A DNA stretch of 62,758 bases, the filler included, from Asterionella formosa (lineage: Eukaryota): the NCBI GenBank assembly GCA_002256025.1. It is 12 parts of 12 records of this genome, joined end to end, with 100 filler letters (N's around TTAATTAATTAA, not from the genome) between each part and the next. Parts side by side here need not be neighbours in the genome. Positions count along the whole stretch, not along the records: positions 31,456 to 36,595 come from NKIB01013205.1; 11 more parts are not named here. One strand, given 5' to 3'. Position numbers and translations under genes: made by a program. A model generated the notes under the pieces. The model made no database searches. It was not told the origin of the DNA and was given only the letters and a program-made list of their open reading frames with translations. Numbering within the stretch: the stretch's first letter is position 1; each line of letters opens with the position of its first letter. Positions 5,147-62,758 of the stretch are shown piece after piece.

Positions 5147-5246
5147 NNNNNNNNNNNNNNNNNNNNNNNNNNNNNNNNNNNNNNNNNNNNTTAATTAATT
5201 AANNNNNNNNNNNNNNNNNNNNNNNNNNNNNNNNNNNNNNNNNNNN
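5147..5246. other. Artificial contig spacer N44-TTAATTAATTAA-N44 (first of 11; the others start at 10392, 15636, 20876, 26116, 31356, 36596, 41834, 47071, 52305, 57533)
   Basis: Identical 100-bp spacer with a six-frame stop 12-mer; the flanking contigs decrease in length. Confidence 0.98.
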
Positions 5247-10391: not shown

Positions 10392-10491
10392 NNNNNNNNN
10401 NNNNNNNNNNNNNNNNNNNNNNNNNNNNNNNNNNNTTAATTAATTAANNNNNNNNNNNNNNNNNNNNNNNNNNNNNNNNNNNNNNNNNNNN

Positions 10492-16572: not shown

Positions 16573-19500
16573 CTCTCCCTGATCTCTGGTCCAACAGTCC
16601 AGTGTACTGTTTGAGATATTAGACGCATGTAGATCGTGGATTCTGGCTATGACATTCTTTGACAGAAGATCTGATGGATTCTTCTCCGTGTTGACATATT
16701 GAACTCTTATGCCTCCACATTCAACTTTCTCGCGTATAAAGTGATGTCTCACATCAATGTGTTTCGTTCGTCCTCCGGCTTGCTTGTTCTTCGATAGGAA
16801 AATTGCGTCAGTATCATCTGCTGATATAATGCTTGGTAGTTCAACAGTAGCGATTTCGTTTAAAAGATGTGCAGTGAACTTAGTTTCCTTTGCTCCATCT
16901 CTGACATTGACACATATTCAGCCTCAGCGCTTGACAATGTCACAATTGTCTGCCCTTTTGATATCCAATTAACTAGTGCAGTACCGCCAACGGTTCCCAA
17001 ATAGGCACTCGTTGATTTTCTTGTGTCAGGATTATCGCCGAAAGAGCTGTCAACGACATCTTGTACACATAGTTCCTTTGGTGGTCTCAACTTCAATCTT
17101 CGATTTTCGGGTTTAGCACAAATATACCCAAGTATTCTTTCTACTGTGTTCCAGTGCTCATCACTTGGATTATCCAAATGTTGTGACAATTCTCGGCATG
17201 CATTGGAACAAACAGGACCAATCTTTTTAACGTAGTTTAGTAGCTTGCCTACCATAGATCGGTACTCTTTATGCTTCACTGGATTCCCAGTTGACAATCT
17301 CAACATAGTACTGGGGAAAGCCGGAGTTAATGCATCTTTTGGAAAATGTCCAAAGATATCTTTGAAATCGTCTTTCATGCCTTGGACAAAACTTTCCATA
17401 CTACTCTCTAAGTAGCGTCCTGTAGAATCCTCTCCCCTTTGTACCACACGCCCAGGTGTTTCTTCAATTGTCCAAGTTCTTTAATTGTGAAATATTTCTT
17501 TATCTCCTTCCTGAACCACTCTACATCACTAGGCTTTCCGGCCACTGCGTAGTCGTCAACGTGTGAGGCAATTAGTAAGACTAATTTCCCATTCCATTTC
17601 AAATAGAAAATACATGCTTCCACTTGACATTGAGTCAGACCAACTAATTTCAAAATTTCAACAAGTTTCTTAAAAAACTGCAAAGCTCACTGAAATGTCC
17701 CATGTATCGCTTTTTTGAGCAAGATGCAATAATTTTCGGTGTCGGCTTTTGTTTCATAGCCAAGCTCTTCTATTCCTTCTGGCCAGCCAATATAGATTGC
17801 TTCGTCCATATCACCTTCTGGGAATGCCGCTTCCACATCAACAATTTTGCAAATCCATCGTTCGTTAACATCCTTGCTGTGATTATAGAGTGTGATTGCA
17901 AAAACTGTTCTTGTTGTTGTATCTGTTGCAACTGGGGCAAATGACTCCGTGAAGTCGACGCCAGGGATTTGTACATATCCCTTCACAACAATTCCTCCTT
18001 TATAGAAATGGATGGATAAGTCTTGTTCAGAATTCTTCTTAAACAACCATCGACTGCCTAGCATCTTGCGTTCATTGAGCATTTTCCTTGGAAATTTCTC
18101 CCACACTTTGCGTTTGTAGAAATTGTTAATTTCCACTTTAATTGCCTCGATCCACTTATCACGTTCAGGATCAGTCATTGCTTGTTTGTACCCTTTTGGT
18201 TCTCCAGGATCAGATGCTAATGATGTTGAATATATCCAATGTATTCCAACGACTCTGTCAATTTCACTGACCATTGTTGTAAGAACCTTGTCGTGTTGTT
18301 TTGGTGGTGGTGCCATCATAATCAGTGCTCTTCTAGCATTTATCATGGGGATCTGTGTCCATCCATCCAATTTCCTCATTTCTCGTTGCAATTTTACGGA
18401 ATACATCTATTCATGGTAAGTGAAAATAGAATGGAACTGCATGTTGTTGCATAAAAATAATATGACTAACATGTATTTGCTTCGCAGTTGTTACAACATT
18501 CATTAACATGAATACTAATAATGAAGGAAAGCTCTGATACGGAGAAGAAGGGAATGAGGAGAGGCAACCCGCCGCTATCAGCAACATCAGTTCATCCTTC
18601 GGAATCAGACAAGTACAAGGGAAAGGATGAAGTGGGCAGTTACAGTTGTGTCAGAAACGGGGTAGCAGGGAAGAAGCAGACAAGAGAATGAACAGGAGTG
18701 AGACGGTGTGAGATAACGGTTTCTATAGAAAGATTGAAACAATTCTAAATTTAGTAGTTAAATTACAATCCGTTTCCACATATTTTGGACAAATACTTCA
18801 TAGAGATACGATGGTAATAATATGGCTAAAAGATGAACAAATACACAATAAAGGATGTAGTTAAGGTAAATCGATGATGGTCTTGTAAGTACAATTAGTA
18901 ATTCATGGTCATGAGAAGGGCGATTGAAATTCAAAGAGAAGTAATGATTTCGACTTGAGTTGTTGTTACTCATTTACTGTATTTGTATGATTACTTTGTG
19001 GTTATCATTATGAGTCAATATGGATCAATATTAGAACAATATGATCAAATATTATAAGTATAAACATGCTTATCAAATATTCATATATAAAGTATGTACC
19101 TGTAACACAAATAACAAACGCGGTATGATACCCCTGATCTTATATGTACGATACTTTTGTTTGCAGACGTTTGGAAGCACTATCTGTATTCTCTCTCCCT
19201 GCTTCAGGGTTGTCAGCAAAATGCACATGAGGTTTTAAGGGGGGGGGGGTTTGTTGTAGCCAGGGTACTAGCTCAAACACTGGTAGCTAGGGGTACCACA
19301 ATTGCTGGGGGTAGTTTGACATTTTCCATGATGTCATATACAGTCGTATTTGTTGTGATATTGGACTTTCCATGCCACTCTCCCCACTTAATGTTCCTAG
19401 TATTGATCACTTTCTTGGTGTCTGGTCAGTACACTCTATATGTGTCCCCTGCATGGTTGTCAGAGTACCCAATCATTATACACTTAGTTGCTTTAGCCTC

Positions 19501-20568
19501 AAGTTTAGGTCTTTTTCCTGGTATTTTTACCCAACCAATTCTTCCAAATTCAACAAGATTATCATATATCTCGGGACACTTCCCATAGAAAATCCAATCT
19601 GGGCTTTTCTGCATGTTGTTTGTATTGTATACACTATTTGTGAGGCGTGTGTGTGTGTTGATACTTTCTGCCCATAAGAGTCCTTGTGACTCATCAGAAA
19701 ATCCTTCAACATTGCAGTGACGCTTCTGTCTCTAATAGTCACAAATTTGCGTTCCACCATACCGTTTTGCTGTGGGGTGTGTGGAGCAGTAAATTCGATA
19801 GTGATATTAAGCCTGTCACACATTGCAGAAAGTCCCTTGATATTTTCCCCAGCATTGTCACATGCATCGCAGGTACCAAATGATGTAGTTGGCATTGCGT
19901 AATTTAAGCAATAGTGGTTCCACTGTAGCCGCCATCTGCGACTTTTTCTTGACAAAGAAACTCCAGGATTTTCCACTTCATTCATCAACGACCAAAGTCC
20001 AGTAAGTACTCCCAACAATATTCTTCTTGTAAGGGCCACTTATATCTGCACCTAAACGCTCACCTGCCATAGTCGCTTTGTTAGTTGCACCTTTAGGTAC
20101 AGCCTTTGATTTTGCTTTAGCCAAAGCACATCCCTCACATGGCTGTTGGACTCCACTGGTCTCAATACCAATCGACTTCAATGTAGCACGCAGAGCTGCC
20201 TCGCTAGTGTGCCCGAATTTGTCATGTGCAACATTGATGTCCATACTTTTCTTAGGTGTAGGCTTAATAGGGTTGCCAGTCATTGGCGCAGCGTCCTCTT
20301 TGTTGTCCTCTGTGGACAATGCTGTTTCGTTGCCGTGCTTTTTAGTACCATGCATATAGTAGAGCACACCGTTGGCCTTGCTCTTGAAAGTTAGTCCGTC
20401 ATGCTCCCCTTCCTTGCGTAGGGTCATCTTGTCCTTGAGAATACCAACCTCGAAACTGCCATTACGCACAAGCATACCGACACTTAGTGTATTCTTGTGG
20501 AAGGTAGGTGTATAGTACAGGACCTTCTTCAGGAGTAGGACCTTCTGTGTAGCAGTATCAGTGAGGAG
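16570..20568 (-). mobile_element. Degenerate Ty1/copia retrotransposon pol (pre-integrase, integrase, RT, RNase H) with frameshifts and stops
   Basis: KKVLY.PTFHKN.LSVG; H.KFGH..CEGC; DNAGEN..TAPHTPQQNGMVER; GYVQIPGVDFTESFAPV; HVDD; TRKSTS..LSSAEAEY; RHHFIREKV..NPSDLLSKN. Order IN-RT-RH. PPT AGGGAGAG at 16580-16573 is followed by TGACA. Confidence 0.93.
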
Positions 20569-20834
20569 TGTTGAAATTGCGTCCCGAAGCACTCTATGCT
20601 TTCTTGTACCCTGTAAGGACAAGTCAGGGACCAAATAGGCTGTAGATATAACAACGATGTCTCCGTGATCGATTGTAATCGTTCCTAAGAGTTTTAATAG
20701 AATTATGGGTTTTTACTGTTGGCGTAGATTGTTTTCGAATTCTCTGGTACCATATTCTTTCTTGATTCATTCGATTCAATATGTAGTAGGTAATTTATAC
20801 CGGGATTTTCTTTCCTAAAATATTTTCTCCAACA
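20569..20834 (-). mobile_element. 266-bp LTR (TGTTGG...TTTCAACA) of a second LTR retrotransposon nested in the copia pol
   Basis: TGTTG/CAACA termini, preceded by a PPT-like CAGCAGGAGTG. Copia coding homology resumes at 20568. The first 95 bp are identical to 31261-31355 (+). Confidence 0.7.
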
Positions 20835-22900: not shown

Positions 22901-24403
22901 TCATTTCTTACCTCCCATTTTAGTCACATTTGTATCCTTCTTTTGCATATTCATGAACATGGACTCCAAAGCAATGCTGTTTGTAGACTCACGTAGTTGC
23001 TCGACTTGATCATAAATTGTATTGAACCTTGCTTGCATATCCCTTTGTTTCCCACCCTCCATACCGTTTGTTGCCAACTCCTCCATGGTTTGTATAGTGG
23101 CACTTCAGCAAAACACCTGAACCATCATCACTGCCAGCAATTTCATTACCAGTATCCCCAGTTGTATACTAGCTCTGGGTCCATACATCCCAACTATTTT
23201 CTAAGACGAGCAAGGCATATGCTTCATCCGATACAGTCATGATGGAGGCCATATTTTTTTGTGTTTTTGGCTAGCATAATTACCATACGTCATTACCCGA
23301 GAAAAATGCACTTCTCTAGAATAATGAAGGGATGCTCTTCAGGGAATGGCTTATGGTATTTGGTTGAGCACGTTGCCTTCTTTGATCTGAGGTTGTGAGG
23401 TTCGATTCCTGCAATTTTTTTGAGAAGCAACGATTGTTGCTTGGGTTTGACTCCCACACTCCTTACCGTCCTGCACGGTCTTGCCTGGTGTGCAAGAAAT
23501 AGTGGATTGCCCCCTTACAAGCAGCTTGTGCCGCCTTCCCCAGGCGGTCGGAGTTTCCCCTAACGCTGCGGCTAAGACAATCATCTTTCGTGAAGGGTGG
23601 TTGGGGACTCACCTACGCTAACAAAACTAGGGAAGCACAGGTCTTGTCGGCAGGCAGCACAATGAATACTTGCCTTGAAAAGGGGAGTAGGAATGGGATG
23701 TGAAACAGATTATCATTTTTGAAGGGATGCTCTTCAACTTTACCAACATCTGGTGGTTCTGTCCTGGACTGAACAATCTTATTCCGGGAAAGGAACTGTA
23801 ACTTTCAATAGTACTCAACCATTCCTGTTTTTATAATTAAGTATTGTTTTGAAAAGGAAGCCAACAGCAAGCACGACACCTCATTTTGAACTTACATTTG
23901 AAACCCTTTCTGATTGATGTTGAAACAGCATTCCTTTTTTCAGACAAAATTTTGTTGATGTCACACTTATATGTGAACCAAAATGATTCAAACTCTTCGT
24001 CAGTACCATTTCTGAGTGATGGGAAATGATTACGAAGAGCACCAGCAATGCTTTTGGGTTCCCTAATTTCCAAATCATAATCACCTGTGACAAATTTAAC
24101 TTTTGGAAACAATTCCTCTCTGACCCACCAGCTAGCCAGAAGGTGTGTCCAATGTTTGCACTGGCCAATTCCACCTACTACTCCAATTGTTATACTGTTG
24201 TTTTCAGCTGCTAATTCACGTAGGCGCTTGATTTCCTGTGTACTCCCAGACAATAGAATTTGGAGTTTATCTCTCTCTTGTTCAGCCGTCAACCTCCTCC
24301 CATCTCCTTTGACACTCTCTTCCGCTTCATTATCCTCCTCAAGTTGATAATCATCATATCCATCCGATGCAGGATTGTCTGGTATGGAATCTGTATCAGA
24401 CAA
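22901..24403 (-). pseudogene. Decayed hypothetical gene of a likely multicopy diatom family, interrupted by a SINE
   Basis: Exon 1 has WVREELFPKVKFV; GT-AG intron at 23895-23825. Beyond the SINE it reads TVSDEAYALLVLENSWDVW..YT..KRYGGW..RFNTIYDQV, with stops and frameshifts. Confidence 0.5.
23342..23719 (+). mobile_element. tRNA-derived SINE, family 1, copy A (378 bp, perfect 17-bp TSD)
   Basis: TSD TGAAGGGATGCTCTTCA at 23325-23341 and 23720-23736. A-box-like TGGCTTATGG; B-box GGTTCGATTCC at 23399-23409. Ends CATTTT. Second copy at 33777. Confidence 0.85.
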
Positions 24404-27400
24404 TGATGCAGAATAGGAATTTTCTCCACTGGAGTGGCAGCTGCTGGAAGGCGACGCACAAATGCGTAGCTATTGCGACCTGACGCACTCTGTCAGCAGT
24501 TTATCTGGTAATCTGTTAGGTAGGTAGCCTTGTAGGTGTGGCTCAAAAACGGCCCATAGTAGTGGCTGTGCTTGGCAGCGTCAATGGTACTTCACGTGGT
24601 AACTGCAGAAGAATACCTACCTATTTGGAACGCACAACAGTTCTTTCCAAAAGCCAATCATAAAAGAATAACTGTAATAACACTAAAATTGACGATGAAA
24701 ATTAAAGTCGCCGATGGCGCCATTTTTATGTAGCTAATTTAGAAATGCACAATTGAAGATGACAATCTTTCTAAGGAATTCGACACTTTCACAGTAGCTG
24801 AAAAATGAATAATACTACGGCTATGACAATAGCATGATGAGCGAGTTGAAGCTAAAGATGTGAAAATCGATCTTTATCAAGTGAGAATTGATTTATTGAT
24901 TGTACCGGCAGTATGTGTAGTCGTTAATGCAGGTATCAGTGCCGACAAAGCAATGTATTATTCTTTGGCAGTTGATACCCAAAAAAAATTTGAAAGCAGA
25001 AAAAATAATAAAGAATCGATATTGGGGACGAATTCATGGGAATTCACATGCATTGTCTTCAATCCTCACGCTTGTACACGCGGGACAAAAGTATAGAGCA
25101 GTACGGTAATTTGTACTAGACTAGTAGAAATTGCCTAATAAGAGTAGACAAAGCTATATCTGAGTATGGGAGAAACGAAGCTTTAGCTTAGTACTCGCCA
25201 GTATCAAAGGTAGGCTAAATTTCTAGTCGCGCCTTTGAGGCTCGAAAACTCGTCCATGTAATAATGCGGACAAGCAATGTGTTCGAGTGTAGTGAGGACT
25301 CAATGCTGGGTGATGGTACGGTGTATGCGTACGAGCCCTGGTAGCTGTCCCAAGTAAGCGTAGCGTGATGGTTGGCGGCTTGATGATCGTTTGTGTGAGA
25401 GGGGTACTATGGTGTGGTTTACTATGGGTAAATTGTTAATTTTTCCGCAGGGTTTGCGCAACAGGAGTACCGGTATCTGCTGTACACCCACTCCCCTTCG
25501 ACCTCCGTGATGGCCGTTGACACATGTGTGTACGGAATCTGATGGATATTGTGGTTATATTTTGTCTAGCGCGTTGTATGCTATGCATATGGTGACCGGT
25601 ATTGTGTCTCAATCGATGAGTAGCCACATGTATGAGGCATTTGTGTGCATCGGTGATAGATGCCGGTACCTGGTACCTGGTAGTATATAAAATATTATAT
25701 ATATAGACAAGCTTTTTGTCGGAATCGGTATACCGGTACCAGGTAATCTGTGTACAAGGTACTGTATAATAACATTTGTAATATACCCGCCACCCGGGAT
25801 GTGAGTCCGGCAGATGGAGTGGTATGCCTATACTATACTGGTTGTTTGTAGGCTGCAGCGCCGGAATATTTGTCCGGTCGGTGATGCAATGGTTTTACGA
25901 GTTCATGTGGATTTTGAAAAACGCGATGTCGGCGTTCGTTGGTTTTGTTGTTGTTTTGATGAAATGAAAGGGCGTCGTTGAATAAGGTTTATAGCGGAAC
26001 GGTACGTCGTCGTGGAGGTGGAGCGTACTGAGCAAATAAACGCGATTTCAATGGGCTGGTGTTGCCTATATTTTTACACTGACTACATGCGTTGCCTTTG
26101 TTCAGGTGGGTAAAGNNNNNNNNNNNNNNNNNNNNNNNNNNNNNNNNNNNNNNNNNNNNTTAATTAATTAANNNNNNNNNNNNNNNNNNNNNNNNNNNNN
26201 NNNNNNNNNNNNNNNAATGGTAATTCAGATCGAAAATTTTTGGCTTGCTAAGATTTAACTTGCTACAAATAGTTCAAAAAGTGCAAATTTACTGTTTTGA
26301 TTTGCTTGGCAATTAGGTCATCATGAAATACAAGACAACTTGTATGATCAAGCAGGACCTGGATTGTTATGTTTTGAGTTGTCTTGTTGGAGAAAATCTA
26401 TGGTCATAATGAAGTAGAAGCCAACACGCGAAAACTAATTTGGGGTTACAACTACCTGACAGATTATGTAAACAATCAATTCTACTTGAGTTGAGCCTTC
26501 CATCATCATGATGAAGAAGAATTCACGTGGAAAGAGAAATTCAATTTGGAGCCAGTGAGCATTCAATCGAAAACAAACATATCGGTCAGGTTTGTGTTGA
26601 CTCGTTCGAAAAGTGCATACATTCTGTTTGTTGTAAAGGATAATCTGTCATTATATGAAGAAAACTAGTGATGATTGATATGGAATGCAAAAATCGATTC
26701 GGGTCTGCTGAGAGTTGAACCAAATAGAATAATTAGGTTTGCGTCGACTATTTGGAAATTAGCTTCGTTGTGTTGGATGATCAAGGGTCATATCATAAGG
26801 GATAATAATTCATATTGAAAGTTAGACTCGGTTTGGGTCTGCTGAGAGTTCAACTCAATGAAACAATATAATCTTTTGTCGAATAATTAAAACTGCAAAT
26901 AATGTGTTGTTTTGAGCACAATGAAAGACTTGCCTACAAATAGGGGATTACAAATGGGCTGTAAAACATACTATCCTTTTTGATTTGTAGGATACTGTCA
27001 TCGTCATGACGAAGTTTATTAGTTCATGAACATTGAGATAGTATGATGGTGGTCCACTGACAGCCAGTTCAACTCGAGAAATGTAATACAATTTGAGTTG
27101 TATCCACTTGTTAAAATGAAAACAAGCATAGCTGGTATTGAGTTGTTGATTCTATAATCATAACATAGGATATTGACAGATGTGGAGAATGAAAATATAT
27201 TTAGGCTTGCTGACAGGTTCATTAAAAATAAAATTCTAATTGAGTGGAGTTTGTTCGAAGAAGGGATCGTTGGAACGATAAGCTGTCAAACATTAAACAT
27301 GGTACTGCTGAGTATAGCCAAATTTTGTGGGCATGATAGAGGGATGGGAAATATTTGTGACAAAAGGAAAATTTACTACGCAAATCTAGAATGAAAAGAA

Positions 27401-31814: not shown

Positions 31815-32945
31815 ATGCATTTGCGTGTGATAGTGATATAAATACTGGATGCGAAAATTCTTAAAAATAATTTTGCGAAAACCAAACGGGGTAATCCGTG
31901 ATCATAATGGTATATAAAATTATATACAATTATAGATAAAAATTTAAGTACTGCTGTGACCCATTACCGGCAAATTTTGTCCACATAAAAGGGTTCGTAT
32001 CTCAGTACCTCGACCTTCAATGAGAATACCGACAGATCCACAACCTGCTGACTCCTTTGGTTAACAAGACCTGGAAGTTTGATTCTCGCAAGGCATGGAA
32101 AAGGTTTAGTCGAACTAATCAAACGAATAGGAGAACTCAGTGGGTCACAGCAGTTCTTTACTGGTACTGTACATTCAACGCCGTTCTTGGAAGGTCTACC
32201 CGGTATTTCCAGGTGCCTCGACCTCCTCGTCGTATTTTTCATGGAACAACATACCAGGTTTCTACGCAAGAAGCCTCGTCATTTACACATTCCGGCTGCA
32301 CTGCCTTCACCAACCCATCAATACTGTGATTTGCTCCCTCCCCCACTCTATACCCAGAAAAGCTGAGATCATGTATATTCATGCCTGGCAAGTTGCGTTC
32401 CCATCATCCACTTACTGCTGCCACATTGTCATCATAAATGATTGATAGCACAAGCTGGCTGCTTTGCTCATTTGAAAATGAGAGCTTGCATTGCAATGAT
32501 GATGTTTCTTGGATACATTCCTTTTTGTTTCCATCAGGCCACTATTCCCAAATTTCTGGCAATACATTATTCATCATCATGTGTGCATGCTTTTGTTGTG
32601 TTGTTGCAGCTGAATTTGTCATTATAATCATCCCTGTTGGCCCATTGATCAAGTTTTCAAGCACCAGAGTTAAATGAATGGAGGTATCTCAGGAGGTCCA
32701 GAGCCCAAGCTTGCCATCGATAATAGGCTCTTCATGCACCATTATGGTCATGCCTTTCTGACCAAGCAACAGCAGATAAAATCAGAACTTTCACACTGTG
32801 GTCCTTGCCATTCAAAATTTTTTTCATCCAGCAAAATACTACTAGCCATTAGTCAAATAACATCCTTGTTTAGGTTTGAAAACAACAACAAAAATTATCA
32901 TCCACTTGAATCTATCAATGATGATTCTACCCCGGGTGGATCATG

Positions 32946-33177
32946 GGGGAATGACTTAGTGGTTAGCACACCCCTGTAGTGGCGGGTTTGATTCCTGCAT
33001 TCTCCACCTGTCTTTTTCATATAGTCCCTAGGGTTCCGGGGGTGCGGCTGATGAAAAGACAGGTCCCGTTGTACAGTACAGACGAATAAAACCGGTACTA
33101 ATTGTGTCCATCTATTTGGTGGGCCCAAGTGCAATTATTGGATAGCTTTAATGTACCAAAAAATTTTAATTTGACAT
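32946..33177 (+). mobile_element. tRNA-Ala-derived SINE, family 2 (about 232 bp, ~20-bp TSD)
   Basis: Acceptor stem GGGGAAT/ATTCTCC-A with G3:U70; A-box TGACTTAGTGG; T-arm GCGGG-TTTGATT-CCTGC. TSD at 32926-32945 and 33178-33197 (17/20, all differences C/T). Confidence 0.8.
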
Positions 33178-33776
33178 TTTATCCTGGGTGGATCATGTGT
33201 AAATGGTGACTAAAACAATATAGGAACTATTTGTCATCCATCCTTTGCTTGTCAGATTCAATATTACACCATCCTTCCCCTGTGCTCGTATCATATCCTG
33301 TCTACTGTCCTTAGCAATTAAAAACCGTGGACATTGGCAGAGAAGCAGGTGCTGGCTGATAGCAGAAGAAGATGATGTGTGGTGTGCTTCATAGACGAAA
33401 TCATGTTCTCGTCATTGTATTTTAGAGGCTACCTAGGCGTATCTTTTTGAAAACAATGCAAAAGATTCAATAACATGAGTTGAGATCGCTATTACATATA
33501 CCTGGTGGTATCATAGTATCTTTATTCTTGCCAAATCTGCATGACAGAAAATTGAAGAGTAACGTAAGGCAAAAAACAGACCTAGCTATCATCTGCCTGT
33601 TTCATCATCAGAAAATGAAAACATCTTATTTGAGTGATGCATCTTAGTCTATGATGAAAATCATGTGATCATAAAAATTCAATATGTTATCTTATATGTA
33701 TGATATTTTTTCCCATACATTAAATATAACACTTTTTCGATTATGCAAAATACAATATTACATGTATCGTTTTCAA

Positions 33777-34067
33777 GGGAATAACTTATGGTAGTTGGTT
33801 GAGCATGTTGCATTTGATCTGAAGTTGTGTGGATCAATTTCCGTAATTTTTTTAGAAGCAATTGTTGGATTCGACTTCAACACTCACACACACACAAGCA
33901 GCTTGTGTCGCCATACAGTCGGAGTTTCCCCTAACGCTGCTGCTAAGACAATGACTTACATACGCTAACAAAACTAGGGAAGCACAGGTCTTTTTGGCAG
34001 GCAGCACAATGAATACTTCCCATGAAAAAGGGGAGTAGGTATGGGATATAAAAAGATTTAGCATTTT
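33777..34067 (+). mobile_element. tRNA-derived SINE, family 1, copy B (diverged, internally shorter)
   Basis: Colinear with 23342-23719 from GGGAAT..CTTATGGTA.TTGGTTGAGCA through GTCGGAGTTTCCCCTAACGCTGC and TACGCTAACAAAACTAGGGAAGCACAGGTCTT to CATTTT. No clear TSD. Confidence 0.8.
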
Positions 34068-35457
34068 ACGCATTTTTTTAATTTTGCTCCTGTACCAGCA
34101 AATGTATTGTTTTTTTGTCATCATCATCATCACTTGCTCCGTTTTCGCCCCATATTCAACACTCCAGCAACAATGACGATCTCAACTGCATGTAAATTAA
34201 AAATTTGAATATTGAAATGTACACAATAATAGCTCCAGTCCCAATAATTAAAATAATGTCAAATTTAGCTTTCACTGTTACTGCCCATCTTCTTTCAATA
34301 TGTTTTGTTATGTTATGCAATGATGCTATGCTAAGAAAAAGATGCTAGGGTGGGTTATTGGCTAGTTATTGGCTAGACACTTTCCCACAATAAAAATTGG
34401 AATCTCCAAAGTTAATGATTCAGCATCAAATAAAGAGTTGGCATGTACCAACACTTTAAACTATGACCAAGCAATGTTTCTAAAAATACGCAAGTGAACA
34501 GTCAGGGTGAAAGTCGCATTTGCTTTCACAATTCGTTGCCTGTGGTGGAGGTAGCTAATAGTGTGAACTTGCTTCTTTATTGAAATATTTTTTATTGACA
34601 TAAATCCCCGTCCTGCTAGGAGGGTTTCAAAGGGTCACAATATCAATAAAATACAAATGAGTTTTGATACCGTTCCTATGACACGTAGAGCATCAACAGG
34701 TTTCTCATATAGACACTGCGAACAAATTCAACGCGGCTACCAGTAGTATCCCGTATACCTCGTACTCCTATGTGGTACCAGCCAGGTACTCGGTATGCAT
34801 GTAGCGTTAATTTATTCTCCACAGCGTCAATGCAGCGACAACCACGACATATTTTGCCCTAGTAATTACCGGTAGTCATCAAATAACCCCAGGCACAAAG
34901 TTCAGGGTATGACGTGCGCAATAGTGAAATTCTGCCATTTTCCTACCAGTACTATACAAATATAAAAAAGTGCAAGCAAAATTGGACCAGAAAGCTAAGA
35001 ACACATCAGCAGTCCCAAGGATTGGATTCGAATCTTATATACAAATAGTCCTTTTAGTCGATGTGACTCAATAGAATACTCAGGAGTACCAGTACCACCA
35101 CCGGTACCATCATACGTGGTACCATCTTACGTGCAACTCCTTTTAGACTACTCCATTGCTTGTATACAAGTACCTGGTGGTACCCTTAAGGAATACAAGT
35201 CACGCCGTCGGAGTCATCATGCATACATACCATTAGTAGGTTGATGACTCATCGCCCCCATTCCTGGTCCCTTTCTAATACATAATGATATGTACCAGTA
35301 TTCACGGTACCAGGTGCTTACAATTTTGCTGACTATGTCGTGCACAGACCATCTAACGAATGAATGTGATGAACCAGAATACACAACTCACAATTTACAC
35401 TTCTAACAAATATTGCAAACAACCAAACCATCCAATAATATCACCGACTCTCTCAAA

Positions 35458-36327
35458 ATGCACTTTTCCACAGTCTCCCTCACTACCTTCTTACTTCTTG
35501 GTCCCACAGCATCTGCCTTTGCTCTTCGTACTGCTACGACTACTAGTGTCACCCGCACGACGTCATCCCTACATGCGGCCTCACTTGACACCCGTCCTGT
35601 CTATGATCCCTTTGGTTTATACCCAGAATCATCAGAAGAACGCGTCAATGGTAGGCTTTTAGTTTTGGAAGATCCCAATATTGAAGTAACGAACCGACTC
35701 GTTTTGGATCCATTGAACATTTATTCACCAGAAAATGATGATGATTTGATGGTCGATGCCAACATTGACATGTCTGCATCTCTGCCTTTTTTGCCTAGAC
35801 CACAGCTTTCCTTTGACGGTACTTCAACTCTGGCAGGTGATGTTGGCTTTGATCCATTCAATTTGGCGGGTGGTACCAAGGAACAATTGTTTATGATGAG
35901 AACTGCCGAGGTGAAGCATGCTCGATTGGCCATGCTCGCGGCTGTGGGGTGGCCAGTATCGGAAGTCGTGCACACGCAACTGGCACATGCTCTTCGTCTT
36001 ACATCATTGTTGGGTCATGGGGATAAGGTTCCGTCGCTGTTAAATGGTGGCCTTGACACGACGTCACCTCTGTTTTGGATGGGAGTGTTGGCAGTTGCAG
36101 GCACTATTGAAGGATTGGCATCCATTGGAGCCAAACAAGCCAGTTTTCCTGGTGATTTAGGATTTGATCCACTGGGTCTATATCCCGAGGATGTAGCTGG
36201 ACAAGAAAGAATGCAACTAGCAGAAATTAAAAATGGGCGATTGGCGATGATGGCAATTACTGGTTTTGCTGTGCAAGAGTTGTTTACCAACATGGCCGTC
36301 ATTCATAATTTGCCATTTCTAAACTGA
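35458..36327 (+). CDS. Light-harvesting complex (fucoxanthin-chlorophyll a/c binding) family protein, probably Lhcz-like, plastid targeted, 289 aa
   Basis: Signal peptide ending TASA|FAL (ASAFAP-type); LAGDVGFDP; MRTAEVKHARLAMLA; PGDLGFDPLG; MQLAEIKNGRLAMMA. Confidence 0.92.
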   Translation: MHFSTVSLTTFLLLGPTASAFALRTATTTSVTRTTSSLHAASLDTRPVYDPFGLYPESSEERVNGRLLVLEDPNIEVTNRLVLDPLNIYSPENDDDLMVDANIDMSASLPFLPRPQLSFDGTSTLAGDVGFDPFNLAGGTKEQLFMMRTAEVKHARLAMLAAVGWPVSEVVHTQLAHALRLTSLLGHGDKVPSLLNGGLDTTSPLFWMGVLAVAGTIEGLASIGAKQASFPGDLGFDPLGLYPEDVAGQERMQLAEIKNGRLAMMAITGFAVQELFTNMAVIHNLPFLN

Positions 36328-50399: not shown

Positions 50400-51404
50400 A
50401 ATGCGAATGTTCCACCTTGATTGTTCCATCACACAGACGGCCTCAAACACCACTTTGTGTTTGTCGACCCCATGACGAAACCTTTCATCAAGAATTCTAA
50501 ACTTCTTAATACGGCCGTTGAACGTTTCATGGCGAGCAAGAGCTCGTTTTTAAATGCCTTCACCGCTGTAGTGTCTATTGCATTGCGGACACTAATTGAA
50601 GGCTCACCTCTGTATCCTTCATCCCCAACAACCCTTTTCCCAGCCGGAATTTTGCTCTTGAGGCCTCCTTCTTCACGGAAGATTGTGACGTCGTGTGTCC
50701 CAGCAGGAAATGGACCATTAATCCATACTAGCTGGTTTCTGAAAATCGAAATACCAAGTTCATAAGCCAATCCAGGCTTGTTGTACTTCTTGGAGTACCA
50801 TCAAGCGCTAGGGTGGTTCCTAGGCTCATTGATGAGACAGTGTGTTCCATCAACAGAGATAATAAAGATTTCCTCGCTATTATTATCAGCTGCATGGAAG
50901 TCCCAAATAATCTAGAAGAGTCAAAACAAACAAAAAACCATTGTAAGTATGTGTTAAAGTACCTTTTGATAGTTGTCAATGTCCATGTTTTTCACTTACC
51001 TTTTCCGCCTTAAGCGCTTGTATTGCAAGTGCATACTCCCAAATACGCTTATGTATGGTCTTCACCACCATGTTGTAGGATCCGGCCAATTCCTCTTCAG
51101 TCTTATAAGTACTCAACCAATCCATTGTGATCAAGAAGAAAAGAGGGTCGGGCTTGTTCACTCGATCTGCACCAATATGATCCATTGACTCCAATGCAGA
51201 AAATATCTTTATACAACTCTGTGGACTGAGACCAAAGAATGAACGAAATCGTCGAAGTTTCGTTGCATCGCAAGTTCTTTCATTCCTATTCTCATCAAAT
51301 CCTGCATGAAGAAGGCCCAGATCAAGAAAATCGGAAGCAGAGAGAGGGAGCATGGTGTGTTGGAAGGAAAGGACAGGCGATTTTGTTTGGTTCAATTTGT
51401 TCAT
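50400..51404 (-). pseudogene. DDE_Tnp_4-type (PIF/Harbinger-ISL2EU-like) transposase pseudogene with one intron (50999-50912)
   Basis: RRFRSFFG; after the intron FIISVDGTHC.INEP..*WYSKKYNKPGLAYELGISI..WINGPFPAG.HD..GDEGYRGEP../RHETFNGRIKKF.IL.ERFRH. One stop and one frameshift. Confidence 0.85.
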
Positions 51405-56437: not shown

Positions 56438-57532
56438 CAGTGAAACCTCCCTATAAGATACACCCTGTTTACTCCTACATTTATGGCCTTTTCGTATCCT
56501 ATAGGGAGGTGTATCTTATAAGGAGGTTCAGCTAGTTTAGGCTGTTTTGTACTCCTTACTTACTACAGTACCAGGGTACATAATATGTACTAAACATTGA
56601 TTTTCATTTGGAAGAAGAAGAAAAAGATTCAATTGGAGGTTGAATAAGCCTAGAATGAGACCTTTTTTGAACAGCGGCAATTATTTCAAGCAATGGAAGT
56701 TCCTGCTCAAATAAATCTATTTCTGTCACATACATCAGTGCTGTTTTTAAACCAAGCAATGCATCTCTTGAGGTTATAGGAACCTTATTGGACACATCAC
56801 TGATTGCTGCCATAGCACTGCCTTCATCCAAGGCACTGTCATCCTCCTCATCCCCTTCATAAATATATTCAGCAACCAAATTTGCAATCAAAGGTTGAGC
56901 ACATGGGATTGCATATTCACCAAAACAATCTTGTACATAATGAATATCAACTTCTCCAAGCCTCTCCATCAGCTCCTCCACTTCATTTTCAGTTTCCTCT
57001 AGTACTGATACACATTCTTCATCACATACTTGTTTAAATCCACATGCTTTAAAGCATTTTTGAATTGTTTCAATCATGACACTTCCCCAGGATGTAGCCA
57101 TAAACTTCATTGCATCAATAACCTGCAATTTCTTAGCCAGATCTGCTGCATGTTCTCCTATTTCAATAAATTGTAATAACTGCAAAACTTGATGCTTACA
57201 AGAAAGAGCTTTCACACTTCTAATGATTCCAGCATCCAAAGGTTGCAACAAACTTGTTAAGTTTGGAGGGAAAGATTGAATCTTTACATGTGTTAGCCTT
57301 GAGCTTGTCTCCTCATCAACAATGTGGACAGGGGCGTTATCCAAGGAAAAAAGAATCGTCCTGTTCTGAGAAGCCATGTATGCATTCAAATCCAATAGAT
57401 ACTCATTAAAAATAGGATTTGTCATCCAAGCTTTGCTACTTGACTTGTACACAACTCCAAGGCGGATCAAATCAATGTTTCGAAAACAACGAGGCTTCTT
57501 GGATTTCCCAATTATGAGCGGTTGCAGCTTTT
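56438..57532 (-). mobile_element. pogo/Tigger (DDE_1) DNA transposon: 3' TIR plus transposase C-terminal part (56604-57532, 5'-partial)
   Basis: IGKSKKPRCF..KAWMT..LDNAPVH..FPPNLTSLLQPLDAGII. TA|CAGTGAAACCTCCCTATAAGATACACC TIR at 56438, with an inverted inner copy at about 56507-56532. Confidence 0.9.
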
Positions 57533-57632: not shown

Positions 57633-58359
57633 TATTTGACAAATCTCATTGATTTTAAAGCAAATTCCAACAGTCTCTTTGGTACACTTCCTACAGAGAT
57701 TGGATACCTGAGAGGTCTAACATCATTGTATGTACAGGAAAACCAGTTGACTGGTCCGCTTCCTTCAGAAATTGGCTTTTTGAAAAATATCATTGATTTT
57801 AGAGCAAATTCCAACCGTCTCTTTGGCACAGTTCCTACAGAGATTGGATTCTTGACAGGTCTAACAGTATTAGTTCTTTGGGAAAACCAGTTGACTGGTG
57901 CACTTCCGACAGAAATTGGCAATTTGAAAAATATGGCATTATTTGCTGCAAGCACAAACCATTTCAATGGAACACTTCCTTCAGAAATTGGATTCTTGAC
58001 AAGTCTTACATTATTGCATCTATTTAATAATCAGTTGACTGGTGCACTTCCAACGGAAATTGGCAATTTGACAAGTCTCAATAATTTTCAGATTCATTCC
58101 AATATGTTTACTGGTGCAATTCCCACAGAAATTGGTCTCATGTCATCATTGAGTAAGTTTAGTTTATCTGAAACTGACATTTCTTGACCATTTGTTCTAA
58201 AATTTCACTTTCTTGACAGCCACATTAAATTTTGGAAAGAACAATTTTACAGGGCCAGTTCCAACAGAAGCATGTAATATTGCAACAATAATTTTTTGCC
58301 CACCGCTGATTTGCAACTGTGGTAGCTACTGTTCCGCAATTAAGCTCGATTGTGATTAA
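57633..58359 (+). CDS. Leucine-rich repeat protein, C-terminal part (intron 58153-58219); 5'-partial
   Basis: 24-aa LRRs (N.LTG.LPTEIG.L..L). The spliced last exon gives NNFTGPVPTEAC..C..C.C..C..C*, a Cys-rich tail. Confidence 0.85.
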
Positions 58360-59375: not shown

Positions 59376-62300
59376 ATGGCTCAAGCTCCCAACGCCCATG
59401 CGGCTTTCGTCTTTGCTCTAACCCCAGCTCTCGCAAATCCTGATCCCGTTGATTACAACTCAAATGAAGGGATGAAATTGTACAAGTCTGCAACCGAAAA
59501 ACTCAATCATCCCTTCGATGGTGAAACTGGAGGCCTCCGCCTTTTCCTTCAAGCCTTGCAGCAACGAGCCGACGCATTTGGATGTGCCTCCATCCTCACG
59601 GTCCCTGATGACCACAACGTTGGGCGAAACCTAATCACCGAATATGTAAGGGTCATCATGGCAAATGTGGTTGCTCACGCAGCCACACATGTTCATTCCC
59701 AGACGTGTGACGCACAGAACTGTGCGCAGTTGTTTACGTGCATTTACGATTCACTTTCAATGGAGGCCTTGCTCAAGGTTTCTACAGACTCATCTGCCTA
59801 TCGTCTTACGTCACCTACAGCCCCTACACACATAGTGGCAAGTGGTGCTGCATTCTTGAAACTTCTCATTACGAGATGCACGGTCGATACACGATCCACG
59901 GTGGCTACCATTCGCCGTACCCTCAGCGTGTTGGATGAAAACATGTTATCGGTGGACTGCAACATTGAGAAGTTTAACCTCCATGTCCGTGTGCAACGTG
60001 ACGCACTTATGTCTCGTGGGGAAACTTCTTCTGACCTACTGACAAATCTGTTTACAGCATACGAGGCTGTGGAGGATAAAGTGTTCCATGATTACATGAT
60101 TGGTCAGCAGGATCAGTATCACGATGGACGGGTGGATTTTGATGTGGATTCGCTGATGGACCTGGCCCTAAATAAATATAAATGGTGTGGGCGGTCCCAT
60201 CCCAGTGCTTCTCAAAGGCACGGTGAAGTGGCGCATAGAGGACAACCTGGGGTGTATTCACATTTTTCGTATTCCAGGAACTTATTTTGCCCCGGCGGCC
60301 CCCTTTAGAATGTTTTCTCCTCAACATTGGAGTCAGGAGACTAATAAGTGCCTTAAGCAAGGCCTTAAGGGAGCATGGTGCGCCACCTACGAGGACAGGG
60401 TAACTCTCCACTGGGGTAATGATAAATATGTGCGATCTATCTGGCTGGATCCAAGCACAAATGTGGCAACTGTACAGACTGCACCAGGGTGCACCAGATA
60501 TCAGATCTACGAGGCCATTATAGGATCAACGAAGGAACACAATAGATCTAAAATGTTTTAATGTTAACACTGTCACCGATGATGAATGCTCAGACCGTGA
60601 GGAGGATGTTAAGGTGCGATCTAAGCTTCCCTACAGTTTGAATGAAGATGAACCATCAATAATTGGGGGGCCAGAGAAGGGAGATGCCAGTGGAACACAT
60701 GATCCGTCCGTTAAGGGAGATGCCAGTGGAACACACATTCTTGAGTCTCACCTTGAAACAGTCTTTCATGACGCATCCGCCAAGCCAACTGAGACTGAAG
60801 ATCAGGATGCCCTGACGCCTACCACGGAATTGCTTCGTCTCCACTACCGGCTTGGCCATCTGCCCTTCAGCCAATTGCGGAGCATGGCTGCTACCGGATT
60901 TCTTCCCAAGAGACTCTTGCAGGCCCGCATTCCCAAATGCGCTGCCTGCATGTATGGAAAGGCGACTCGAAGGGCTTGGAGGTCAAAAGCACCACCAAGC
61001 AAGGTGGGGGGCGGAATGGCGACTTTCCCTGGACAGTGCGTCTCCGTGGACCAGATGCAGTCCCCTACACCAGGGCTGATTGGGCAACTCAAAGGAGTTC
61101 CCACCACTCAGCGATATATGGCCGCAACGATCTTTGTTGACCATTTCAGCCGCCTTTCATTTGTCCACTTGCAGCGATCGCTGACCTCGGATGACACCGT
61201 GAAGGCAAAAAGGGCCTTCGAGCGATACTGCGAGTCACACGGCGTGAAGGTGATGCACTACCATGCTGACAACGGTCGATTTGCGGACACGCTGTTCTTG
61301 CAGGACATTGCCGAGCAGCGCCAGAGAATTTCGTATTGTGGTGTCAACGCACATTTTCAAAATGGTGTGGCAGAGAAACGAATTAGGGACTTACAGGACT
61401 TGGCGCGTACTGCGTTATTGCACGCCACTGCCCGATGGCCACGAGTCATGTCAAATTGCCTGTGGCCATATGCACTGCGTACGGCTAATGATGCACTTAT
61501 TAGCGCTCCGCGTCGTGTGGACGGAAGGTCCGCCGCAAGCGTGTTTTCCCGGACTGACGTGTCCCCTAAGTTGGGGTCATTTCGCCCTTTTGGGTGCCCT
61601 ACGTACGTTCTGTCTAACGAGCTGGCTGCCAGGAAAAACATACCTAAGTGGTTAAAGAGAGCAAGGGTAGGCTTGTATCTAGGGCAGTCCCCACAGCATG
61701 CACAGTCCGTTGCTCTAGTGTTAAACATATCGACGGGGCTGGTGTCACCGCAATTTCATGTTGCGTTCGACGACCTCTTCGAAACCGTGGGAACCAAGGA
61801 GGACGTATATGAGATTGGCTCGCTCTCCGCCACGCATTTCTCCGAGAAGTCGTCCGGAGCCAAAGGATCACGAGGGCGCACCAAGCCGGTCGTCGTGGAC
61901 AGTTTAAGTCAAGAGATTTTCCCGCTCCCTCTCCTCCTCTCCCCACAGGGACCGCCACCCCTGGTTATTCCAGTCGTAAATGAGGATGGGGTCCCACATG
62001 AGGCTCTCCTGGAAACCGGGGCAGGACTCCCACTCCTTGCGTCACAGGAGTCCGCCTCTTCAGGAGTGCGTTGGTCACAACGACACAAGCCGTCACGCCG
62101 GTTACAAGAGAGTGTTGAACAGGGCCTGCTGTGCAAGGCATCGGCACTCGAGGATGTGGATGGGGATGAAGAGTATCACCTGCAGGTTATGATGGAAGAC
62201 CCAATTGCATTCGCAGCAAGATCATCCGATCCTGATACGTTACGCGCTGACCAGGCTCTAAGGGAGCCAGACAGAAAGCAGTTTATAGCCGCCATGGAAG

Positions 62301-62758
62301 CCGAGGTCATGGCGCATCACAATAATCAACATTGGAAGGTGATTCCGAAGTCAGCCGTGCCACTCGGAACCAAAATTCTGCCTTGTGTGTGGGCGATGAA
62401 GAGGAAACGCCGGATAGCCTCAAGGGAGGTGTAGAAGTGGAAGGCCAGGCTAAATCTGCATGGCGGGAAACAGGAACATGGGGTGAACTACTGAGAGACC
62501 TATGCGGCTACCCTGTCATGGCCACCCATCTGCTTTATGTTGGTCCTGTCCTTAATGCATGGATGGAGTACCCGGCAGATAGATTTTACACTTGCGTACC
62601 CGCAGGCCGACGTGGAATGCGACTTATATATGGAAATCCCGCATGGGTTCGAGCTACCGGAGGGGGGTCGAAATGGTCATTGTCTCAAGATTCTGAAGAA
62701 CATTTATGGTCAGAGACAGGCAGGTCGTACTTGGTCCTTGCATTTGACTAAGGGGCTA
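59376..62758 (+). mobile_element. CoDi-type Ty1/copia retrotransposon (gag, integrase, RT start), defective and 3'-truncated
   Basis: gag FALTPA..DY..G..Y..AT..L..FDG; integrase H.RLGH..CAAC, SVDQM, YHADNGRF, HFQNGVAEKRIRDLQ; RT VWAMKRKR..KARLNLHGGKQ.HGVNY with in-frame stops at about 62432 and 62492. Confidence 0.93.

Follow-up and report, generated by a model that had tools for sequence, protein, structure and literature searches.

A probable tRNA-derived short interspersed element family from a freshwater alga, most likely a diatom

The window analysed here, a stretch of 62,758 bases of DNA from the Asterionella formosa assembly GCA_002256025.1, contains at positions 32946-33180 an element that is, with a probability of about 0.9, an old, fixed copy of a tRNA-derived short interspersed element (SINE), that is, of a non-autonomous retroposon residing in the nuclear DNA of a freshwater alga, most likely a diatom. 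This assignment, already proposed in a sequence-only reading of the window, is retained because the element is multi-copy with sharp ends, has relatives bounded by target-site duplications (TSDs), and starts with a tRNA-like head carrying A and B boxes. Indeed, its 235 bp are non-coding, its head is of the RNA polymerase III (Pol III) type, its copies are many and dispersed, and its TSDs are of variable length. The landmarks pointed out in the sequence-only reading were all found where it had placed them: a hairpin, an acceptor stem with the G3:U70 pair and a discriminator A, a T arm, a CATTTT end, and a TSD of about 20 bp with three C/T differences. The element is referred to below as family 2, to keep it apart from a second family present in the window, family 1.

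The window consists of 12 separate contigs, arranged in order of length from 5146 down to 5126 bp and joined by 11 spacers of 100 bp (N with TTAATTAATTAA in the middle; for example, 5147-5246 and 10392-10491). Distances and "repeats" that run across spacers are artefacts, and the detected repeats D1 and I1-I25 are the spacers themselves. The element sits in contig 7 (31456-36595). The sequencing runs that contain this contig are labelled as algae, freshwater or lake-water metagenomes, and the 12 contigs could stem from more than one organism.

Copies, ends and target-site duplication of the element

Self-BLAST of the window finds a single copy of family 2. Its abundance elsewhere was assessed from a depth profile built on the Logan contigs of X1, X4, X6 and X12, four runs that belong to as many studies, over positions 32400-34400 and at a likeness of at least 80%. 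Summed contig depth, which is a proxy and not a copy number, goes from 765 in the left flank to 870,003 in the peak bin of the element in X1 (about 1137-fold), from 6.88 to 2,485 in X4 (about 361-fold), from 4.73 to 2,110 in X6 (about 446-fold), and from 2.4 to 131 in X12 (about 55-fold). The bins containing 32946 and 33180 are those in which depth rises and falls. In X1, depth is 765-797 in the flank, reaches 420,199-870,003 in the bins over 32936-33203, and then drops again. We read this excess as hundreds of copies, as an order of magnitude only.

Other members of the family were recovered from metagenome contigs, where one scan with a 22-nt pattern from the head yielded eight loci (L001-L008). 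Four of them, each on a contig of its own, are family copies, related to the window copy at 80.1% over 231 nt (L004), 77.7% over 251 nt (L005), 77.6% over 241 nt (L007) and 80.4% over 163 nt (L008, a truncated copy). Three others (L001, L002 and L006) have the 22-nt pattern without a tRNA-like context and are not members; the eighth, L003, is considered with the sister elements below. Viral contigs, scanned with two patterns, gave no match to either. Four loci from prokaryote genome contigs match a 19-20-nt pattern only and are unrelated. The copy count that had been proposed as a check on the SINE assignment thus came out in its favour: a sequence with a 55- to 1137-fold depth excess in four runs and four copies in metagenome contigs is not single-copy. 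The window copy differs from the majority letter at at least 8 of its 235 positions.

Contigs run from the left flank into the element in three runs (X1, X4 and X6) and from the element into the right flank in two (X4 and X6); therefore, this particular insertion is present in three studies. No joint that skips 32946-33180, as an empty site would, was found among 15 of the 45 joints, and polymorphism of the insertion is neither shown nor excluded by this result.

The ends of the element are visible as the points at which other copies part from the window sequence. Upstream of 32946 they diverge (13 contigs in X4, agreement 0.45). At the other end, they continue through ...AATTGACATTTT and diverge beyond it (71, 21 and 28 contigs in X1, X4 and X6, respectively; agreement 0.55-0.6). 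The 3' end shared in X1, X4 and X6 before the flanks diverge reads ...GACATTTT, and the SINE tail terminates in ...ATTGACATTTT. The only open reading frame (ORF) of at least 90 amino acids that touches the element, 32674-32976, has no Pfam match; the element has no ORF of its own, and no terminal inverted repeats are found within its 235 bp.

The two flanks carry a direct repeat of 22 nt with 3 mismatches (32924-32945 and 33176-33197), whose score was reached by none of 2000 shuffles. At all three mismatches the 5' copy has C and the 3' copy T, one of them at a CpG. The first five nucleotides of this repeat overlap the ATTTT at which the element itself ends, which leaves 17 nt, with 2 mismatches, that can be assigned to the TSD without ambiguity. 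The features of the element are collected in Table 1.

Table 1. Features of the family-2 element, in order of position along the window
Feature	Position	Strand	Basis or remark
5' TSD copy, 17 nt unambiguous	32929-32945	+	22 nt from 32924 if ATTCT, which resembles the element's 3' end, is included
Whole element (probable SINE copy), 235 bp	32946-33180	+	depth step; four other copies align over the span
tRNA-like head, 61 nt: acceptor stem of 7 bp (G3:T70), D and T arms, shortened anticodon arm, discriminator A	32946-33006	+	Rfam
A-box-like motif TGACTTAGTGG	32952-32962	+	window copy A at 32954, majority G
B-box-like motif GGTTTGATTCC	32985-32995	+	window copy T at 32989, majority C
Long hairpin adjoining the head; about 13 bp in the stem, one bulged T	33007-33063	+	fold
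T5 run (sense strand), possible Pol III terminator inside the element	33013-33017	+	6 nt past the discriminator
Family-specific body	33064-33174	+	no match in Rfam, the family-1 body or the L003 body
3' end CATTTT	33175-33180	+	read directly
3' TSD copy	33181-33197	+	direct repeat

The tRNA-like head and the elements that share it

The head of the window copy has the layout of a tRNA. Seven base pairs, G3:T70 among them, join its acceptor arms GGGGAAT (32946-32952) and ATTCTCC (32999-33005), and the discriminator A follows at 33006; the T arm, GCGGG/TTTGATT/CCTGC, occupies 32982-32998. The Rfam tRNA model (cut-off 29 bits) aligns with this head from end to end, over model positions 1-71, with 6 nt in the place of the 15 that the model has in the anticodon arm. 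Over the same model positions, the head of L004 scores 30.0 bits (E 0.0019) and that of L005 28.3 bits (E 0.0054). The anticodon region measures 5-6 nt, against 13-15 in the model: the arm is about 8 nt shorter and the anticodon loop is deleted. It would be too much to call the arm lost, as the sequence-only reading had done, for it is shortened, and most copies retain a short palindrome of about 14 nt in this region.

That reading had also described the A box and the T arm as intact, which is not quite true of the boxes in this copy. At 32954, within the A-box-like motif, the family majority has G instead of A (96,192 of a depth of 100,533 in X1, G being the majority letter in X4, X6 and X12 as well), and at 32989, within the B-box-like motif, it has C instead of T (686,984 of 848,527 in X1, and C in all five other sequences). 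With the family-majority letters, both motifs fit what we take to be the consensus A box, TRGCNNAGTGG, and B box, GGTTCGANNCC. Judged by this comparison, the two boxes are canonical in most copies, and the window copy carries one mutation in each. Because of these two mutations, the non-majority letters along its length and the divergence between its TSD copies, the window copy is probably inactive.

A tRNA origin of the head is shown. Its derivation from a tRNA-Ala gene in particular, with G3:U70 and A73 as inherited alanine identity elements, is given slightly less than an even chance. The pairs G1:C72, G2:C71, G3:U70 and G4:C69, together with A73, are identity elements for alanyl-tRNA synthetase (AlaRS), and all of them, with T for U, occur in L003, L004, L005 and the window copy, L007 being complete except for its first G. 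Thus, the alanine-type acceptor end that had suggested a tRNA-Ala head in the sequence-only reading is found in four heads. For the head as a whole, the isotype comparisons give mixed results. When the five heads were compared with 40 distinct tRNAs that ARAGORN identified in loci of a single Bacillaceae genome, three came closest to Gly(GCC), one to Met and one to Ile, and Ala took ranks 26, 12, 9, 21 and 25 of 40. A tRNA-Ser variant of this set has an acceptor with G3:T70 that is nearly identical to that of the SINE, and G3:T70 alone is therefore not diagnostic. The alanine anticodon (NGC) is not there to be read, since the loop that would hold it is deleted. Phage tRNAs point the other way: 13 annotated tRNAs among the 40 matches listed comprise 10 tRNA-Ala, 1 tRNA-Cys and 2 tRNA-Thr. 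These matches are weak, however (head positions 34-62 only, E 0.1-2), and the 10 tRNA-Ala rows correspond to five Streptomyces phages with two accessions each. The E. coli genomes gave no match to the head. Bacterial and phage tests of whole-head similarity disagree, and both reference sets are poor proxies for the nuclear tRNAs of a diatom; within the head sequence, it is only the acceptor stem that argues for alanine.

The head is not confined to family 2. L003, whose record bears the title marine metagenome, carries this shortened head as well, at 90.7% identity to the window copy over 75 nt, a higher value than the 78-80% that family-2 copies from metagenomes reach with the window copy. 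In this locus (661-904), the body of about 180 nt and the 3' end are unrelated to family 2, and an imperfect direct repeat adjoins the head (matched by 42 of 2000 shuffles). Family 1 is represented in the window by a full copy of 378 nt in contig 5 (23342-23719), flanked by a perfect 17-bp TSD (23325-23341 and 23720-23736), and by a second copy of 292 nt in contig 7 (around 33777-34067), some 600 bp from the family-2 element and in the same orientation. Its depth excess is similar to that of family 2. When five heads of the family-2 type are used as a profile, they match the family-1 head (23342-23414) with an E-value of 2.4e-4, in spite of about 12 extra nucleotides in its anticodon region and an insertion in its D loop. 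From these sequence comparisons, a single head lineage is common to no fewer than three element families.

The bodies of families 1 and 2 are unrelated by self-BLAST, and the only 3' sequence common to them is ...ATT..CATTTT. Both end in CATTTT and both have 17-bp TSDs. Because of this equal TSD length and shared end, a common mobilizer, in the form of a partner long interspersed element (LINE), is plausible for the two families. Accordingly, of the kinship between the two families put forward in the sequence-only reading, the part that concerns heads, ends and TSDs holds up, while the partner LINE itself was not found among the ORFs of the window that were scanned.

Mode of spread, the internal T run and competing explanations

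tRNA-derived SINEs have a type-2 internal Pol III promoter and depend on LINEs for their retroposition. Along these lines, the first 61 nt of the element would go back to a tRNA gene whose anticodon arm had become about 8 nt shorter. TFIIIC and Pol III would be recruited by the A and B boxes within this segment, and the endonuclease and reverse transcriptase of a LINE would then copy the RNA into new chromosomal sites by target-primed reverse transcription. Insertion would duplicate about 15-22 bp of target, as is seen at the window copy. The resemblance between ATTCT in the target and ATTTT at the end of the element suggests that the nicked strand could prime synthesis by annealing to the U-rich 3' end of the RNA.

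The hairpin directly behind the head (arms CCTGTCTTTTTCAT, 33007-33020, and ATGAAAAGACAGG, 33051-33063) has a predicted energy of -25.4 kcal/mol in the window copy (z -3.69; 1 of 300 shuffles as good), and that of L004 has a z-score of -3.79. In L005 (z 0.1) and L007 (z -0.63) it is not better than shuffled sequences. The outer 7-bp stem is kept in sequence among four sequences, without compensatory changes. Folding and covariation, which the sequence-only reading had suggested as checks, thus speak for a stable hairpin in two copies and give no covariation for it; the hairpin is a feature of the family, not a proven RNA structure. The fold of the full-length element (z -1.28, with 24 of 200 shuffles as stable) gives no evidence for a global structure. 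In the middle of the body, an AATAAA at 33084-33089 (GACGAATAAAACC) is kept in L004 and L008 and altered in L005 and L007; it is probably there by chance. The loose likeness of a segment to the central domains of metazoan SINEs (CORE, V, Deu, Meta), tentatively raised in the sequence-only reading, is conjectural; Rfam gives no match for the body, and those of L003 and family 1 bear no relation to it.

Inside the 5' arm of the hairpin lies the T5 run. Runs of four to six T occur 6-7 nt past the head in four of the five family-2 copies, the run being lost in L007, and both family-1 copies have a T7 run immediately past the head; L003 has no T run behind the head. Given the known behaviour of Pol III at its terminators, a transcript should stop at such a run at a length of about 72 nt and not extend into the body. 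Head and T run together look, in sequence, like a complete tRNA gene with its terminator. The run could be accounted for by read-through, by co-transcription by RNA polymerase II, or by a head that derives from a whole captured primary transcript.

The T run is one of several observations that weigh against the SINE assignment or parts of it. Transcription of the element by Pol III is a prediction from its boxes, and the T5 run argues against efficient full-length transcripts. The head of the window copy scores 16.9 bits with the Rfam tRNA model (E 0.81), below the cut-off; L007 and L003 gave no row for this model at an E-value of 1 or less, the best Rfam row of L003 being the transfer-messenger RNA (tmRNA, a member of the tRNA clan) with 16.4 bits. 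ARAGORN predicts no tRNA in the window or in L001-L008, and a search of the whole window against Rfam at gathering thresholds gave no match. The figure of hundreds of copies comes from depth, which is a proxy. The TSDs of the other copies are weak, shuffles doing as well in 42 of 2000 cases for L003, 55 for L005 and 143 for L007; moreover, the best direct-repeat alignment of L005 lies partly within the element's tail, and L004 comes without a 5' flank. At its 3' end, the element lacks the A-rich or simple-repeat tail typical of most SINEs. Finally, no LINE domain (RVT_1, Exo_endo_phos) was detected in 95 of the 125 window ORFs of at least 90 amino acids, the 30 unscanned ones overlapping scanned ones in other frames, and self-BLAST revealed no LINE tail resembling the SINE end elsewhere in the window.

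The T run also lends itself to another explanation, in which the head alone is the functional unit. Head, 6-nt trailer and T run would then constitute a Pol III mini-gene producing an anticodon-less tRNA-like RNA of about 70 nt, and the body would be carried along by occasional read-through or would have been joined by template switching. The recurrence of the T run at nearly the same distance from the head in most family-2 copies, and its presence in both family-1 copies, are what one would expect from such a gene, as is a head that matches that of L003, despite unrelated bodies, more closely than the window copy matches its own family's metagenome copies. Yet the run is absent from L003 and lost in L007, promoter function would by itself lead one to expect a conserved head, and the depth profile shows head and body to be equally abundant, so that we regard the mini-gene as unlikely. 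Still less probable is the stronger version, based on sequence features of the head, in which the anticodon-less head with its alanine-type acceptor and T run would be a self-contained Pol III gene module and the SINE bodies its passengers. If this were true, hundreds of loci would give rise to a tRNA-like RNA some 70 nt long, which could undergo trimming by RNase P and RNase Z, receive a CCA end, perhaps be charged by AlaRS, or act as a tRNA mimic.

At the far end of the scale, we see very little chance that the repeat is a DNA transposon of the miniature inverted-repeat (MITE) type, or a sequence spread by recombination, with a tRNA fragment acquired by chance. The hairpin is indeed a long inverted repeat, no partner LINE was found, and other contigs of the window contain DDE transposase fragments. 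This inverted repeat is internal, however, and not terminal. The 17-22-bp TSD is far longer than those of cut-and-paste transposons, which usually measure 2-10 bp, and the element has a defined polarity, from a tRNA head to a T-rich tail.

Genomic surroundings and relation to known SINEs

Several other features of the window may be recorded here. Downstream of the two SINE copies of contig 7, at a distance of 1.3-2.3 kb, lies an intronless light-harvesting (Chloroa_b-bind) gene, around 35458-36327 on the + strand. Its product has a long N-terminal extension and a signal peptide ending in ...ASAF|A, a motif typical of algae whose secondary plastids are of the red lineage; relatives named among the 120 listed are the diatoms Amphiprora, Chaetoceros neogracile and Epithemia clementina (47-51% identity). 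Contig 2 encodes an NFACT protein for which 12 of 120 listed relatives bear an organism name, a fragment of one, or a genome-project code taken to be that of a Pseudo-nitzschia; all 12 are read as diatoms (48-52% identity) and include Nitzschia, Pseudo-nitzschia, Mayamaea, Cylindrotheca, Cyclotella, Skeletonema and Seminavis, the best relatives overall reaching 72-74%. Taken with the run labels, these relatives make a freshwater diatom the most likely host; matches of the light-harvesting protein to solved structures and to the protein atlas lead no further than a red-lineage alga, and GAPDH is uninformative.

Remnants of other mobile elements are also present. Fragments of Copia-type long terminal repeat (LTR) retrotransposons (RVT_2, rve_3, SH3_retrovirus, gag_pre-integrs) are found at 16863-20712 on the - strand and at 60524-62434 on the + strand, those of contig 4 being interrupted by frame changes. 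Two transposase fragments lie on the - strand: a DDE_1 fragment at 56604-57530, presumably of the pogo/Tigger type, which runs into the end of its contig, and a DDE_Tnp_4 fragment at 50432-50800, presumably of the Harbinger type. A 144-nt unit is repeated three times in tandem at 57635-58066 (83% and 69% identity to the first), within an ORF with leucine-rich repeats. In contig 6, a 63-nt unit occurs four times at scattered positions within 720 bp (26518-27235), at 60-75% identity.

The SINE assignment yields a probable diatom SINE family with defined ends, head, boxes and TSD, together with at least two sister families that share its head. Presence or absence of its insertions can serve as markers in population and phylogenetic work on diatoms, and the family provides a handle for finding the active LINE. 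It also offers a test case for Pol III termination, with a T run inside an element that has clearly been amplified.

The type of element is well known, indeed a textbook one; what is new is a family of it in an alga that is most likely a diatom, a group in which SINEs have hardly been described. Our literature searches found no published description of a diatom SINE family. With tRNA-derived SINEs in general, the element has in common its size, a tRNA-like 5' head with A and B boxes, a family-specific body, a high number of dispersed copies and variable TSDs. It departs from them in an anticodon arm that is about 8 nt shorter, in the T5-T7 run and the long hairpin behind the head, and in its CATTTT end. 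The classic case of a SINE derived from tRNA-Ala is that of the rodent ID elements and the BC1 RNA gene, which keep the anticodon region and end in poly(A). The alanine-type acceptor stem in the head is a likeness with them; their hosts are unrelated to the one considered here, and the two are set apart by description, not by sequence.

SINEs were long believed to be missing from unicellular eukaryotes; for diatoms they are recorded solely in later, automatic annotations, and their role there "remains poorly understood" (PMC7466962). The SINEs reported for Cyclotella cryptica v2.0 and Phaeodactylum tricornutum come from automatic annotation at class level only; unlike family 2, they are given no family structure, head origin or TSDs in the available part of that paper (PMC7466962). 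In a haptophyte, 14 candidate SINE sequences have been listed, with no manual check of the SINE class reported in the part of the account at hand (PMC5963040). The infSINEs of Phytophthora infestans resemble family 2 in being non-autonomous SINEs of a stramenopile with an internal Pol III promoter, to which the expression of infSINEm has been ascribed (PMC3429519). Compared by description, infSINEm counts 32 copies, whereas the family-2 element shows a depth excess of hundreds-fold (PMC3429519 for the former).

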